Shown in pieces: positions 30,924-37,397 of a DNA stretch of 46,024 bases. Position 1 is the first letter of the stretch. Every line of letters starts with the position of its first letter. Both the position numbers and the translations under genes were made by a program. The notes beneath the pieces were generated by a model that worked only from the letters and a program-made list of their open reading frames with translations, was not told where the DNA came from and did no database searches. This DNA is from a virus (lineage: Duplodnaviria; Heunggongvirae; Uroviricota; Caudoviricetes), in IMG/VR virus record IMGVR_UViG_2718218133_000007; one strand, given 5' to 3'.

Positions 30924-31448
30924 ATGAAGTTATGGCCTGTGTTGACTGGCATTGCACTCTCTTTCACTCTTATAGCATGTAAGGCCCCGACACCACCTAA
31001 AGGTGTGCAGCCGATTACAAATTTTGACGCCAACCGCTACCTCGGAAAATGGTATGAAATAGCTCGCCTCGAGAACCGGTTCGAACGTGGTCTGGAACAG
31101 GTCAGCGCTACTTATGGAAAACGGAACGACGGAGGGATTCGTGTACTTAACCGTGGATACGATCCAACGAAAAATAAATGGAGCGAGAGCGAAGGTAAAG
31201 CATACTTTACTGGAGATACTAAAACTGCAGCATTGAAGGTTTCGTTTTTTGGCCCCTTCTATGGTGGCTATAATGTAATCAAACTGGATGATGAGTATAA
31301 GTATGCTCTTGTCAGTGGTCCGAACAGAGAATACCTATGGATTCTGGCAAGGACCCCAACTATTCCAGATAAAGTAAAAGCAGACTATGTGCGAACCGCT
31401 CAAAAGTTGGGATTCAATGTCAATGAATTATTATGGGTTAAACAATAA
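30924..31448 (+). CDS. Blc-like bacterial lipocalin, outer-membrane lipoprotein
   Basis: 174-aa ORF with lipobox (LIAC), lipocalin motifs GKWYEIARLENRFERGLEQVSATY and KVSFFGPFYGGYNVI…YLWILARTP matching recalled Blc; only plus-strand gene inside the late region. Confidence 0.8.
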   Translation: MKLWPVLTGIALSFTLIACKAPTPPKGVQPITNFDANRYLGKWYEIARLENRFERGLEQVSATYGKRNDGGIRVLNRGYDPTKNKWSESEGKAYFTGDTKTAALKVSFFGPFYGGYNVIKLDDEYKYALVSGPNREYLWILARTPTIPDKVKADYVRTAQKLGFNVNELLWVKQ

Positions 31449-32853: not shown

Positions 32854-33016
32854 GATTCCTCCTTGCTGCCAGTCGCAACCATTTTTTATCAACCAGGCTG
32901 GCGGTATATCCGAGCAGTGTTGGTATTTCGGAAGGCTTCAGCTCCGGTTTACGCTTACGACGATCTGGTACTCTGTAGATGTGTCCGTTCATGACACGAA
33001 TAAGCGGTGTAGCCAT
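32846..33016 (-). CDS. ninE: NinE-like small protein (56 aa)
   Basis: Hand-translated ORF below the 60-aa track cutoff: [56 protein letters not shown]; start overlaps ybcN stop, stop overlaps ybcO start. Confidence 0.6.
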   Translation of the reverse strand: MATPLIRVMNGHIYRVPDRRKRKPELKPSEIPTLLGYTASLVDKKWLRLAARRNHG

Positions 33017-33471
33017 TACGCCTCCTGCTTGTCGCGGAGCAGCTGGAACTCGCAGCTCTGCGGAATAGTCAGGTGGCAGCCAATATTCACCGCCCAGGCT
33101 TCAACCTTACACAGGAAGACATACATCTCTCCGGTATCAAGATCGGAGGTATGGCGTAACGACTGGATAGTGGTGATATCACCGGTTACGACATCAACCA
33201 GGTCTTTGGTTTCATAACCGAGATATGTGTGTTTGAGAGCATCTTTTACCCAAGCTGGAGTAGCGAACGTTTTACCCCTGCTGATGAGGTATTCACTGAT
33301 TTCGCTGTACCACATGTGGCTGAGTGCATTCTGGGAAAGACTGCGTTTCTCACGCCACGGTTTAAGCACCATGCGAAAGCATTTGCCCTCCTCCAGATAA
33401 GGCTGGATCTGCCGACCGATAGCGGTGAAGTTACCGCGATGTAATTTGATGCCATCTTGTGGGAGATTCAC
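33016..33471 (-). CDS. ybcN: YbcN-like protein (DUF1367)
   Basis: 151-aa ORF at the ybcN position of DLP12-type nin regions. Confidence 0.7.
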
Positions 33472-33658
33472 GCTTCACCTCCGCAGAGGTCAAACGCTGG
33501 ATACAATATATCGCAGGTGCATTTCTGCATCTGTGGAGGGAGAAGAGAGTTTGGATTGTGTGTGCGCATAAACGTCCCCGTTTAGCGCAGAAGTCACCGG
33601 AGTTGTTCAGGCTCCGATGACATGATTATGGCGAGTTGATTATCGCAAATCAAAGGTT

Positions 33659-34015
33659 TTAATTGTGCTTTATTCCTTCAAGCGTTGCCTTCATACCAAC
33701 CAAAGAAATGTTTAGCTCTCCAACTTTCTCAGGGCTATATAATTCAGAATGAAGCCAATATTCTGATTTATCTAAACATCTTTTAGCCAGCTCTCGATCA
33801 AAGTCTACGACTTGGGAAGACGCTTCATACCAAAGTCTATAAAGTTTTTCTTCTTCGTTTGGGTTATTAGGCTCACCACGTTTTAATTTTTCAGTATATA
33901 AAATTGTTGAATAAATCGCAGGAGTTAATCCAGTGATTGCCCTCTGCCGCAGATCGGATTTGTTTGTTATCCACCCCAACAGACGATCTCCCATCCATGT
34001 GATAATTGTATCCAT
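33659..34015 (-). CDS. hypothetical protein (118 aa), no family recognised
   Basis: ORF with plausible RBS (aagaaggg…ATG); AT-rich relative to flanking nin genes; occupies the position where K-12 DLP12 has ybcM/ybcL. Confidence 0.45.
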   Translation of the reverse strand: MDTIITWMGDRLLGWITNKSDLRQRAITGLTPAIYSTILYTEKLKRGEPNNPNEEEKLYRLWYEASSQVVDFDRELAKRCLDKSEYWLHSELYSPEKVGELNISLVGMKATLEGIKHN

Positions 34016-34476
34016 GCTTTAGCCCTTCTTAGTAAATAGTGTGTAGGGCGACTGAAGGACCGAGTTTATGCTTTTTCGCATTGCTTTCAGTTAGTACACC
34101 GGTATCGCACCGGAAACAATCCTACGGCAAATTGGTTGTCTGACCTCTCGGTTTTTCGTGCATTAACCGATACCCACTACAGTCTCGGCGAAAGCTGCAC
34201 ACCCCCAGGGTGTACTGGTAGCACTCGGCACAGCCTAGCACGCCACTTTCTTCTCACTATCCAGTCTAATTTTATCCCCTAGTCAGACACTCAGATGTAG
34301 TGCTCCGCAGCGGCATGCGGGGGAATACAAAAACTCGGACAAAATTGGGCCCTCCTTTTTGAATCACTCGCGGGGATGTAGTTATTAATACATGGAAAAA
34401 GATCTGTTTTCAAATCCAACATTATATGGTTTCAATACCACGGGGTGGCTATGTGTTTCTCATTGTTAATTGGAAT

Positions 34477-34800
34477 CTACTGTAATCGATCCGAACGTAA
34501 ATGCGGCAAAACTCGACTCCACTTATCATCCTGCCACGGCCGGAATTTTACATGTGCCGTTTCTCTGGCAAGGATTGCCTGTGCCTTATTGAGTATCTGG
34601 GGATATTCTTGCTCGATAGAAGTGAAGCGACCAGCTTCACGATGCTCCGCAACCTGAAGAAGAGGAGTAACGTTCTGGTAGGTAATTAACATCACATTCC
34701 CTGCTCGCCATAACCAGGCGAGTGTGCAAAGTTCGTTATCAGTGAATTGTTTTGTGATTGGGTATTGTTGAACTGCTAGAACGAGAACGCCAGCATCCAT
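34477..34800 (-). CDS. hypothetical protein (107 aa), no family recognised
   Basis: ORF downstream of ybcK on the same strand; no recognisable motifs. Confidence 0.4.
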   Translation of the reverse strand: MDAGVLVLAVQQYPITKQFTDNELCTLAWLWRAGNVMLITYQNVTPLLQVAEHREAGRFTSIEQEYPQILNKAQAILARETAHVKFRPWQDDKWSRVLPHLRSDRLQ

Positions 34801-34911
34801 TGGCAGTCTCTATAGTAAAACCATAGCTCAGGACGCTTCGTTCAGGATAGATAATTTTATTGTACTTACCTAACTTTCTTACTATAGCACGGTTGAAAAA
34901 GTGATTATTAC

Positions 34912-36438
34912 TCAAAAATAAACCTCACCATCAACCATATATTTGAGAGTACTTATCGCCTGCTGGGCGGATATTGTTTTCATTAAAGGATAGTGTTTAA
35001 AAACAATGCCATTCATAAAATAGATATCACAGGTTTTATTATCTGTATTGATTATGATTTTTTCGAATGTTTTATAGGCAAGTGTACGACATAGCTCTCG
35101 CCCATTTTTACTGGTTAAGTCAATAGCATGAAAATCACCAAGTGAACTCACCGCTTTACTCTTCAAAGTTTTTAATGATACAGAAGCCCTTCGTAATTCC
35201 TTATCTAATACTCTGATTTTTTCTGCTATAGCGGTAACTTCAGGCGCAACAGATAATGCAGCAATTAAATTATTAATTTTCATCTGGAGCTCAATAATTT
35301 TCAACTCTAAAGTTTCATTAGCATCTTTCTTGTTTTCAACTGGTTGGATTTTACTACAATTAAAAAGCAACTCATTAATGATATTATAATCAACCAAATC
35401 TCTCTTTATTGATGGCCTGTCACATCGATGCAGTCTTCTCATCGGACAAACATAATAGCCATGCAAACTTCCAGATACCGCATGAACAATCATGGTATTA
35501 CCACAAGCCTCGCACTTCATAACTGTTCGAAGTAGATTTATCAACATAGGATTTTTGCTACTATTGCTAATACCAAAAGGTGCCAACCGAATTTCCTGTA
35601 CAGCGTAAAACAAATCATCTGATATGACTCTGGGATAATAGCCAGCGATTTCACTTATTCCTTTACCTCTTGCACGATATGAAGGTACGCATATACCTAT
35701 CAGAGCTTTATTCGCTAATAATTTTTCAATTACAGAAGGTCCCCATGCACTTTCTTTTCCTGAGAAATTCTTTACAGCATGATCATTTAAATACTTGGCT
35801 ATTGCATTCAATGAGCGCCTTTCCATCCTGAGTTTAAAAATTAGCTCAATAGTTTTCACCCTGTCGGGGTCTGGAACAAAAGCCGTTCTTTTGTCATCTA
35901 AGGAGAGCCATCTCGGACAAGACGCCGTCATAATCGTACCTGATTCCAGTGCATCCTGCCGTTTTTTCTTCCATGATAATTTAACCCGACTTGACTTTAT
36001 CTCGCTTTCTTCATTTGCCCTTTGTGCTATAAGTATGGCTTTTATTAATGAATATGGCTCATTCAAAGAGTCAATATTATAGACTGTATTGTCGCAAAGA
36101 GTTATAACATCAATACCGTGATTCAAAATCAATTTCAGACGTTCAATCGCTTCACCGACTTTTTCTCTTGAAAGTCTGTCCAGACTTTCAACTAACAATG
36201 TAGTTCCTGGCAATATATAACCATGCTCTATAGCATCTAAAAATTCCGAAAAAGCTCCTGATTGTGCATGCTTTCCTTTGAATGCACTTAATCCTAAATC
36301 TTCATATGTTATGGTATCAAGATAATAATCACTATTTACCTTTAACCATTCAGCAATAAGTCTTCTCTGTCGGTTTAATGAGTCGCCAGACATCTGACCT
36401 GGTGATGAAAATCGCATATATGCTATGGCTTTTTTCAT
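34912..36438 (-). CDS. ybcK: large serine recombinase (resolvase/invertase-type N-terminal domain, recombinase domain, zinc ribbon, coiled coil), YbcK-like
   Basis: 508-aa ORF; N-terminal …AIAYMRFSSPGQ… with candidate catalytic Ser; Cys cluster CEACG…C…C; AT-rich; adjacent to emrE as in DLP12. Confidence 0.75.
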   Translation of the reverse strand: MKKAIAYMRFSSPGQMSGDSLNRQRRLIAEWLKVNSDYYLDTITYEDLGLSAFKGKHAQSGAFSEFLDAIEHGYILPGTTLLVESLDRLSREKVGEAIERLKLILNHGIDVITLCDNTVYNIDSLNEPYSLIKAILIAQRANEESEIKSSRVKLSWKKKRQDALESGTIMTASCPRWLSLDDKRTAFVPDPDRVKTIELIFKLRMERRSLNAIAKYLNDHAVKNFSGKESAWGPSVIEKLLANKALIGICVPSYRARGKGISEIAGYYPRVISDDLFYAVQEIRLAPFGISNSSKNPMLINLLRTVMKCEACGNTMIVHAVSGSLHGYYVCPMRRLHRCDRPSIKRDLVDYNIINELLFNCSKIQPVENKKDANETLELKIIELQMKINNLIAALSVAPEVTAIAEKIRVLDKELRRASVSLKTLKSKAVSSLGDFHAIDLTSKNGRELCRTLAYKTFEKIIINTDNKTCDIYFMNGIVFKHYPLMKTISAQQAISTLKYMVDGEVYF

Positions 36439-36694
36439 GGTGACACCTGCTAACGTATGCTTTTATAAACCTTAGTGGTGGGATATAATTTTTGTTTAAT
36501 TTTTATTTAAAAAGACAATTAAGGTCACATTATCTTGAATATACAACAATAATCGTATTGCAATTTTCTTACGCCATAATCTTGAAAGCACAAAAGAATA
36601 CATAAAAAAATAAAGACATTAACAAAAAGCATAAAACGAGGCTCATATAAATATAAGAGCCTCCATATTTTAGTCGTTTAGAAACAAATTATTT

Positions 36695-37027
36695 TTAATG
36701 TGGTGTGCTTCGTGACAATAAATTAATAACCAACACACCGGCACAAATCAACATCATGCCTATAATGGCTGGCAGGTCCAGCCGTTGGCCGAAAAGTCCC
36801 CATGACAGTAAGCTAATCAGGACAATACCGACTCCTGACCAGATAGCATAAGCAATCCCTGTAGGAATATAAGCCAGCGTCTGAGCTAATAACCAGAATG
36901 ATGCACAATAACAAATAATTGTACCAACAGATGGCCATAACCGTGTAAAACCTTCTGAAAACTTCATTAAGGTTGTACCAATGACCTCTGCAAGTATTGC
37001 ACCACCAAGATAAATATAAGGGTTCAT
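36695..37027 (-). CDS. emrE: small multidrug resistance efflux transporter EmrE
   Basis: 110 aa from MNPYIYLGGAILAEVIGTTLMKFSEGF… matches recalled EmrE; four TM segments; ORF track extends to 37081. Confidence 0.9.
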   Translation of the reverse strand: MNPYIYLGGAILAEVIGTTLMKFSEGFTRLWPSVGTIICYCASFWLLAQTLAYIPTGIAYAIWSGVGIVLISLLSWGLFGQRLDLPAIIGMMLICAGVLVINLLSRSTPH

Positions 37028-37094
37028 AGAATATTCTTTCCTGTTCAAACTGGAGAGAATTGTACTACAGTTTGAACTCAACTCACCTGTTTCA

Positions 37095-37397
37095 TCATTG
37101 TGTACCCATTGATGTTCTTTTATATACCCTCAATACCCGTTTCATCGCGGCACTCTGGCGACACTCCTTAAAAATCAGATTCGTGCTCACCTTTCCTTCC
37201 CGTTCTTCTCTGGTAGCAAACCGGTAATACACCGTTCGCCAGACCTTACCTTCGATAGCCAGAAGACCTGCCCGTGCCATTTTAGCCGCAGCCTGATTTA
37301 TGCTGGTTACCGTTGCGCCTGTTACCGCGGCAACGTCCTGCGCACAGAATTTCTTATGAGTCCCCAGGTAATGAATAATTGCCTCTTTGCCCGTCAT
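37095..37397 (-). CDS. ren: Ren-like protein
   Basis: 100-aa ORF MTGKEAIIHYLGTH…QAAAKMARAGLL… matching recalled lambda Ren; overlaps P stop. Confidence 0.85.
   Translation of the reverse strand: MTGKEAIIHYLGTHKKFCAQDVAAVTGATVTSINQAAAKMARAGLLAIEGKVWRTVYYRFATREEREGKVSTNLIFKECRQSAAMKRVLRVYKRTSMGTQ

Follow-up and report, generated by a model that had tools for sequence, protein, structure and literature searches.

Between ybcN and ybcK of a DLP12-like lambdoid prophage, IMG/VR record IMGVR_UViG_2718218133_000007 (46,024 nucleotides, the whole stretch being called the window here), lies an interval at positions 33,472 to 34,911 that carries two small open reading frames (ORFs) of 118 and 107 amino acids, here named ORF118 and ORF107. 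An earlier interpretation made from the letters of the DNA alone (the sequence-only reading) had placed both on the late-direction strand, which is indeed the minus strand, and had proposed them as the best candidate in the window for an undescribed small system. The question raised by this locus is thus whether the two ORFs do form such a system and, if not, what the interval is made of. We found it to be a mosaic rather than a two-protein system. The most constrained sequence of the interval is contained in the 462-bp spacer between the two ORFs, which had been overlooked, and comparison of related copies gave strong evidence that this sequence encodes a real, constrained, structured and uncatalogued RNA of about 330 nt. 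Downstream of ORF107 there is a separately mobile module, in which a promoter-like site is succeeded by the RNA and, 30–55 nt later, by a cargo ORF. The features of main concern, in the order of transcription, are as follows.

34477-34800, minus strand: ORF107, 107 amino acids, 5'-truncated gene remnant retaining the P22_AR_C domain
34384-34413, minus strand: promoter-like site, with the -35 element TTGAAA at 34413-34408 and the -10 element TATTAA/ATTAAT at 34390-34384
34378-34050, minus strand (the strand of ORF118): conserved structured RNA, about 330 nt, as defined by RNAalifold and covariation
34342-34283, minus strand: candidate upstream ORF of 19 codons in domain 1 of the RNA, with an invariant GGAGG, TTG at 34342-34340 and TGA at 34285-34283
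33659-34015, minus strand: ORF118, 118 amino acids, the cargo gene

A conserved and structured RNA upstream of ORF118

Alignment of the DNA upstream of ORF118 across diverse loci revealed long invariant runs, including the 24-mer GAGAGGTCAGACAACCAATTTGCC. Among the first six diverse copies this 24-mer did not vary at all; two later copies have a C in place of a T within it. It also served as the search pattern with which many of the later copies were fetched. Over 15 diverse copies (alignment A6) the RNA region was about 78–82% identical to that of the window, whereas ORF118 in the same comparisons had a nucleotide identity of 72–74% with saturated synonymous divergence (dS), and the non-coding stretch must therefore evolve several-fold slower than the neighbouring synonymous sites. 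A coding function of the RNA region was considered and rejected, with a 61-amino-acid ORF seen in some copies being stopped at codon 4 in the window, and with indels of 2 nt being found.

Using RNAalifold, the alignment folded into 92 pairs in 18 helices, forming two domains (34378-34273 and 34266-34050), and 17 of these pairs displayed compensatory double changes. In the helix at 34189-34166 six pairs covary, with as many as five pair types, and in the helix formed by 34250-34245 with 34195-34190 three pairs do so. The proportion of cells that were paired was 97.9%, as compared with 92.5% upon shuffling, the covariation score was 0.234 as compared with 0.136, and the 17 pairs changed on both sides compared with 12.4 ± 1.5 in shuffled alignments; none of 500 shuffles reached the observed value in any of these three measures, and sliding the partners by 1–3 columns left only 1–5 pairs changed on both sides. 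Because the structure had been derived from the very sequences that were tested, a split-sample test was also run, in which the structure predicted from seven sequences gave 96% pairing and 19–22 covarying pairs in the other seven, as compared with 2–6 in the slid controls, with the two independent predictions having 98 of about 100 pairs in common. There were about 177 G.U cells versus 29 non-canonical cells (a hand tally from the pairing table), and the alignment folded with -81 kcal/mol on the ORF118 strand versus -57 on the opposite strand, for which reasons the RNA was assigned to the strand of ORF118.

This RNA had no counterpart in the collections searched. No model of Rfam 15 matched 33000-37200 at E ≤ 1, nor did any match 34020-34450 (431 bp) when the limit was relaxed to E ≤ 10, ARAGORN returned no tRNA or tmRNA, and no annotated feature lay under the RNA in 30 RefSeq copies among the matches listed (159 genomes having a match). 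No paper describing it was found by title or abstract, with a description outside of the searched literature being possible. Three more specific assignments were tried and abandoned. The invariant AUGCGAAAAAGCAU hairpin differs in loop size from boxB and had no boxA-like sequence by eye just upstream, so that a boxB-like reading stays speculation; pairing of the 3' end of the RNA with the ribosome-binding site of ORF118, in an anti-Shine-Dalgarno manner, can be drawn in the window and is unconserved at other loci; and the repeats expected of a type III toxin–antitoxin RNA were not found in a tandem-repeat scan of 33400-35000.

The RNA is followed by variable cargo

Three different RNA motifs were used for searches of viral and metagenome contigs, which together with BLAST matches gave about 100 loci having the RNA; it was furthermore present in 159 of 5426 complete Escherichia coli genomes. 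At every locus the RNA sits between the replication module and the nin genes and points the same way, and wherever a cargo is present, this starts 30–55 nt after the last helix of the RNA. The cargo itself differs between loci. In addition to ORF118, we found ORF118 truncated to 59–66 amino acids (phrog_8527, more than 25 loci), a protein of 178–191 amino acids with two terminal hydrophobic helices (L058, L078, L084, L100, L101, L108, L111, L112, L115 and L116), a 183-amino-acid protein with RLRHNLLH near its C-terminus (L075, L083, L086, L089, L091, L107 and L109, of which two are Klebsiella phage records and the others viral or metagenome contigs that are unassigned), a 95-amino-acid protein followed by one of 162 amino acids, a 177-amino-acid protein starting with MKNIIIDSNAW, and a hydrophobic, transmembrane (TM) protein of 65 amino acids. 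At locus L062 an insertion sequence has entered after the RNA. At locus L019 there is nothing between the RNA and the first nin-type gene, the first ORF (204 amino acids, DUF1367-like only by reading of its sequence) starting 112 nt after the RNA. In all, lambdoid prophages of E. coli, Klebsiella, Enterobacter and Obesumbacterium have at least six cargo types, unrelated to each other, behind this RNA. The upstream neighbours of the RNA vary too, being the Bro-N gene discussed below or its remnant, Ea22-like proteins or a MazG-like fragment.

No profile of PADLOC-DB v2 matched ORF107, ORF118, ybcK or five of the alternative cargo proteins. The 183-amino-acid protein, having an Rx4H, HEPN-like motif and no match in Pfam or PADLOC, is a candidate RNase-type effector. 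The shape of the 178–191-amino-acid protein, which matched no known family, is typical of membrane-disrupting abortive-infection effectors. Two scans of a contig collection with one genome per species, made with RNA motifs, were uninformative: one was without match and the other gave two matches, on contigs of metagenome-assembled genomes labelled Planctomyces and Dehalococcoidia, which we assumed to be chance matches to a 20-mer.

Signals preceding and within the RNA

The putative promoter upstream of the RNA has a spacer of 17–18 nt and was read from alignment A6, the 15 diverse copies of which all have TTGA and T.AAT. At 34420-34433 of the window and equivalent positions (A6 columns 14-33), the -35 region is overlapped by a conserved AAACCATAT motif and by a hairpin that is conserved in part; these may represent either a regulator-binding site or the end of a preceding transcription unit. 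Between the RNA and ORF118 there was no terminator-like site. The frame of the candidate upstream ORF in domain 1 is kept in 14 of the 15 copies, with a stop at codon 13 in one lineage. Its first 12 codons were tabulated and eight of them were invariant at all three positions, so that the constraint looks to be exerted at the level of RNA, and translation of this ORF could not be demonstrated.

ORF118 and its protein family

ORF118 is a real gene under purifying selection. Its close homologues, found in prophages of E. coli, Obesumbacterium and Enterobacter, are 69–99% identical and all exactly 118 amino acids long, with a ratio of non-synonymous to synonymous divergence (dN/dS) of 0.07–0.12 and with synonymous sites being saturated (dS 1.5–2.2). 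A very confident structure model predicts the protein to be a four-helix bundle. It belongs to phrog_12412, of unknown function; scans of Pfam, NCBIfam and PADLOC were without match, and PHROGs gave families of unknown function only. No defence, toxin–antitoxin or exclusion family in these four collections matched either ORF118 or ORF107.

When 1.84 billion cluster representatives were searched with a profile, 351 proteins of the ORF118 family were obtained at E ≤ 0.001, most of them having 120–135 amino acids. In an alignment of 60 family members T37, Y40, W62, K83 and W87 were invariant and C80 was near-invariant; none of these 60 sequences had a meaningful match in Pfam, and a profile search of the PDB based upon the same alignment gave nothing. 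The possibility of a HEPN RNase was rejected, since the alignment had no invariant R...H or Rx4-6H and Foldseek matches to HEPN proteins had E > 0.5. The likeness of ORF118 to four-helix bundles of the HPt or CheA-P1 type is a generic bundle similarity and not homology, with identities of just 7–11% and with no invariant histidine in the ORF118 family.

Relatives of ORF118 occupy several other prophage slots. They were found next to int in the early-left operon, where they immediately follow a Hot/theta homologue and the RNA is missing, as well as between the lysis genes and terminase of a prophage also carrying KwaA. One relative is fused to TIR_2 and adjoins GmrSD, and others lie near a TIR/NUDIX pair and an integrase, between DUF4145 and AbiGi, or beside a PD-(D/E)XK protein. 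These surroundings suggest an accessory or immunity-related role for the family. One member of 1661 amino acids (P0027) contains nine matched stretches of a partial ORF118-family domain (profile positions 36-82), as a repeat protein built from this module.

ORF107 as the remnant of a Bro-N/P22AR_C gene

The sequence-only reading had seen no assignable motif in ORF107, which was mistaken, as its residues 15-85 match Pfam P22_AR_C (PF10548) with E = 1.1e-15 and the protein also matches PHROG anti-repressor families, including phrog_7640. The equivalent locus in phages IdasGreatGrand and PhiR26_1 is occupied by an intact gene for a 202-amino-acid protein, which in IdasGreatGrand consists of a Bro-N domain (residues 17-100) and a P22_AR_C domain (residues 110-180); some phage records label such intact homologues 'Rha protein'. 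Residues 5-107 of ORF107 align with residues 100-202 of the IdasGreatGrand protein at 85% identity, the Bro-N (or Ant/Rha) N-terminal domain is absent, and the first four codons of ORF107, including its ATG, derive from junction DNA. ORF107 has a weak Shine-Dalgarno sequence, and its start is overlapped by a terminator-like hairpin (34805-34788). For the remnant compared with intact copies dN/dS was 0.24–0.31, as compared with 0.07 between two intact copies, which is consistent with relaxed constraint. Because the alignment starts at residue 100, Bro-N is gone, the start codon comes from junction DNA and dN/dS is relaxed, we conclude that ORF107 is the 5'-truncated, dead or decaying 3' half of a 202-amino-acid gene of the Bro-N plus P22AR_C antirepressor family. 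With regards to the P22 Ant/BRO-N antirepressors as a family, ORF107 thus shares the P22_AR_C domain, being 79–85% identical to the C-terminal half of the intact 202-amino-acid proteins, but lacking Bro-N it is a fragment and not a functional member. The Bro-N half was lost at the ybcK-side junction, where the emrE-ybcK module joins. A leftover function of the free P22AR_C domain is conceivable, but nothing was found in its support.

In PhiR26_1 an opposite-strand gene annotated PD-lambda-1 is located between ren and the intact Bro-N gene (L004 1389-2891), where the window has emrE-ybcK, and a different ORF of 169 amino acids, without the RNA element, takes the place of the RNA and ORF118 (L004 4548-5057). 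As PhiR26_1 differs both upstream and downstream, both sides of the Bro-N gene are exchange hotspots.

The two ORFs are also not tied to each other. The neighbourhood survey that the sequence-only reading had called for, asking whether the two genes co-occur as a pair, had a negative outcome: no ORF107-like sequence accompanies ORF118 in L006 (Obesumbacterium), L008 (Enterobacter bugandensis) and L011-L013, with the RNA being retained in L006, L008 and L011; the upstream gene in IdasGreatGrand is the intact 202-amino-acid gene and not ORF107; and the more distant ORF118 homologues lie in other operons. As ORF118 lacks ORF107 in most of the other loci, the two do not constitute a pair. They also lack the arrangement of a tight operon, the gap of 462 bp between them holding the conserved RNA, and it is this upstream RNA, not ORF107, that travels with ORF118.

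Relation of the RNA to its cargo

Overall we lean towards, with somewhat better than even confidence, a mosaic of the ORF107 remnant and an RNA-cargo module, with the RNA probably being a leader that acts in cis to gate a slot for accessory or defence cargo. As judged from position and strand, the RNA would make up the 5' leader of the mRNA for the cargo, with a promoter of its own that would probably be active in the lysogen. Its folding would then set or gate expression of the cargo in cis, possibly with involvement of the short leader ORF, and the slot would carry accessory functions, most likely in phage exclusion, defence or counter-defence. Such a leader is supported by the lack of a terminator between RNA and cargo and by the narrow 30–55 nt spacing on the same strand. 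More tentatively, the locus could be an RNA-gated defence hotspot, with an undescribed large RNA family serving as a portable control module for swappable toxic or defence genes, and the RNA may then sense infection or the state of the cell; this extended version we consider doubtful.

Several observations weigh against the leader reading. The promoter is imperfect and a generic consensus scan did not call it, and the fold energy of the single sequence is unremarkable (z = -0.76 versus dinucleotide shuffles). The RNA family is narrow, with 78–100% identity and all members in Enterobacteriaceae, so that the covariation rests on few lineages, and many helices are invariant, so that covariation provides no test of those helices. 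The five alternative cargo proteins that were scanned, being all but the 65-amino-acid one, neither came above the Pfam threshold nor were found in PADLOC, and for the ORF118 family the link to defence comes from six neighbourhoods plus a single TIR fusion. Moreover, the RNA is 98–99% identical where ORF118 is cut to 59–66 amino acids and is present at the cargo-less L019, and its being kept with a truncated or absent cargo fits a trans-acting RNA as well as it does a leader.

An independent non-coding RNA acting in trans, as a sponge, a decoy or a regulator of host or phage factors, with the downstream ORFs as passengers, we regard as possible, albeit with low confidence. Besides the more than 25 loci with truncated ORF118 and the one without cargo, the extreme conservation of the RNA loops, including the 24-nt stretch without any change among the six diverse copies first aligned, and the promoter-like site of its own would agree with such a function. 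There is, however, no intrinsic terminator between RNA and cargo, and the cargo, where present, starts within its narrow distance of the last helix on the same strand. The truncated-ORF118 loci are furthermore very recent relatives, and retention of the RNA therefore says little there.

It is unlikely, in our view, that ORF118 is a counter-defence or host-takeover protein of lytic growth, expressed with the delayed-early nin genes and not protecting the lysogen. ORF118 does lie in the direction of the pR operon between replication and nin genes, and its distant homologues inside the early-left operon, directly after the Hot/theta homologue, are without the RNA; the fusion of an ORF118 domain to TIR in one bacterial protein would also allow a free copy to mimic or block a sensor domain. 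Against such a function stand the apparent promoter of the RNA-cargo module itself and the effector-like looks of the neighbouring cargo types, including two-TM proteins and the Rx4H motif.

Very improbable is a DNA-level explanation, in which the conserved spacer would be a landing pad for recombination, a protein-binding region, or recently transferred DNA without any function as RNA. Mosaic joints of lambdoid phages often lie in conserved linkers, and the spacer does mark the boundary of both cargo and upstream-gene swaps. Such an explanation is nonetheless made unlikely by the 17 pairs with compensatory changes, with several helices showing 3–5 pair types, and by a strand asymmetry (G.U tolerated, A.C not) that is unexpected for a DNA site; the divergence of the spacer is also far below the neighbouring synonymous rate. 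A two-gene system of ORF107 and ORF118 (a toxin–antitoxin, exclusion or anti-defence pair), as could be thought from their adjacency on the same strand and joint inheritance in 95 E. coli genomes and phage Turner, is scarcely credible with ORF107 being a domain-truncated remnant that starts in junction DNA 462 bp away from ORF118, with other genera having ORF118 without ORF107 and IdasGreatGrand an intact 202-amino-acid gene upstream, and with neither protein matching PADLOC.

Comparison with known systems

As a leader, the RNA would stand next to cis-regulatory leader RNAs such as riboswitches, attenuators and the motifs found upstream of abortive-infection genes (the Rfam abiF motif, for example), with which it shares a conserved sense-strand fold directly upstream of an ORF and possibly a short leader ORF. 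It differs from these in being, with its approximately 330 nt, much larger than typical leaders, in having mutually unrelated genes downstream, in belonging to no Rfam family, and in that no ligand, terminator or anti-Shine-Dalgarno logic was identifiable.

The slot as a whole resembles phage morons and prophage hotspots (such as the P2/P4 defence hotspots and the lambdoid PD-lambda slots) in being a variable position between conserved phage genes, with deviant composition and with an exchange, from one related phage to another, of small genes whose function is unknown, and the PhiR26_1 record has PD-lambda-1 upstream of its intact Bro-N gene. Here, in contrast, the conserved neighbour of the cargo is a large structured RNA instead of a core protein gene, and the cargo is without match to catalogued defence systems. 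As for the signals flanking a moron, the promoter-like site was read from the alignment and remained uncalled by the scan, and ORF118 is not followed by any clear terminator.

Layout of the locus in comparison with K-12

In this prophage the early-right and late genes are on the minus strand. The order of transcription is O, P, a ren-like gene, emrE, ylcJ (frameshifted), ybcK, ORF107, the 462-bp gap and ORF118, which is followed by the ylcH homologue, ybcN, ninE, ybcO, rusA, ylcG and Q. The neighbouring features are as follows.

34912-36438, minus strand: ybcK, large serine recombinase (Pfam Resolvase, Recombinase and Zn_ribbon_recom), the upstream flank
34801-34911, minus strand: junction DNA between ybcK and ORF107
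33468-33569, minus strand: 33-amino-acid ORF homologous to ylcH, with 82% protein identity to K-12 YlcH
33016-33471, minus strand: ybcN, the downstream flank

Both flanks were 96–97% identical to K-12 MG1655 by BLASTN, with homology stopping at 34873 and 33654, so that 1220 bp here stands for 1814 bp of K-12 containing ybcL and ybcM. The sequence-only reading had listed ylcH, ybcM and ybcL as replaced, which agrees with these breaks for the latter two genes but not for ylcH, the 33-amino-acid homologue of which is kept. It had also noted a local AT-richness, which is true of ORF118, having a GC content of 0.37–0.39 (that of ybcK is low too), but neither of ORF107 (0.44–0.47) nor of the spacer (up to 0.50). 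On the ybcK side, which belongs to an emrE-ylcJ-ybcK module also present in K-12, identity to K-12 is 97% as far as 34873, whereas the intact Bro-N/P22AR_C gene is matched only from about 34787 onwards. The approximately 86 bp between these positions are unrelated DNA that may mark the end of the emrE-ylcJ-ybcK module.

The full cassette was found in 95 of the 5426 complete E. coli genomes, and an essentially identical arrangement is present in Escherichia phage Turner (PP925837), the record of which was deposited as a complete phage genome. The view that an accessory slot has been replaced here, where the nin region of a DLP12-like lambdoid prophage begins, is supported; the general intuition of an accessory slot with possibly undescribed content was reasonable, its specifics as two proteins being wrong. 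A further replaced accessory slot is seen towards the lysis genes according to the annotation of L001, as between Q and essD, where K-12 has nmpC, this prophage has an opposite-strand lipocalin-family gene (30924-31448, plus strand), a YbgA-family gene and a helix-turn-helix gene.

Implications

Accessory slots of prophages are a main reservoir of undiscovered phage-defence and counter-defence genes, and such slots are normally found through conserved flanking protein genes. At this locus the conserved neighbour is instead a large folded RNA, which shows clear covariation and belongs to no Rfam family. Had ORF107 and ORF118 been cloned together as a pair, the wrong unit would have been tested, the object of interest being the RNA-plus-cargo module. 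ORF118, in turn, defines a protein family without a Pfam entry, having 351 cluster representatives, a very confident structure model and one TIR fusion. If the RNA does regulate its cargo, it would represent a new class of cis-regulator and provide a practical search handle for new cargo genes, and it would also be a tractable model, as isolated phages (Turner and IdasGreatGrand) as well as sequenced clinical E. coli carry this RNA.

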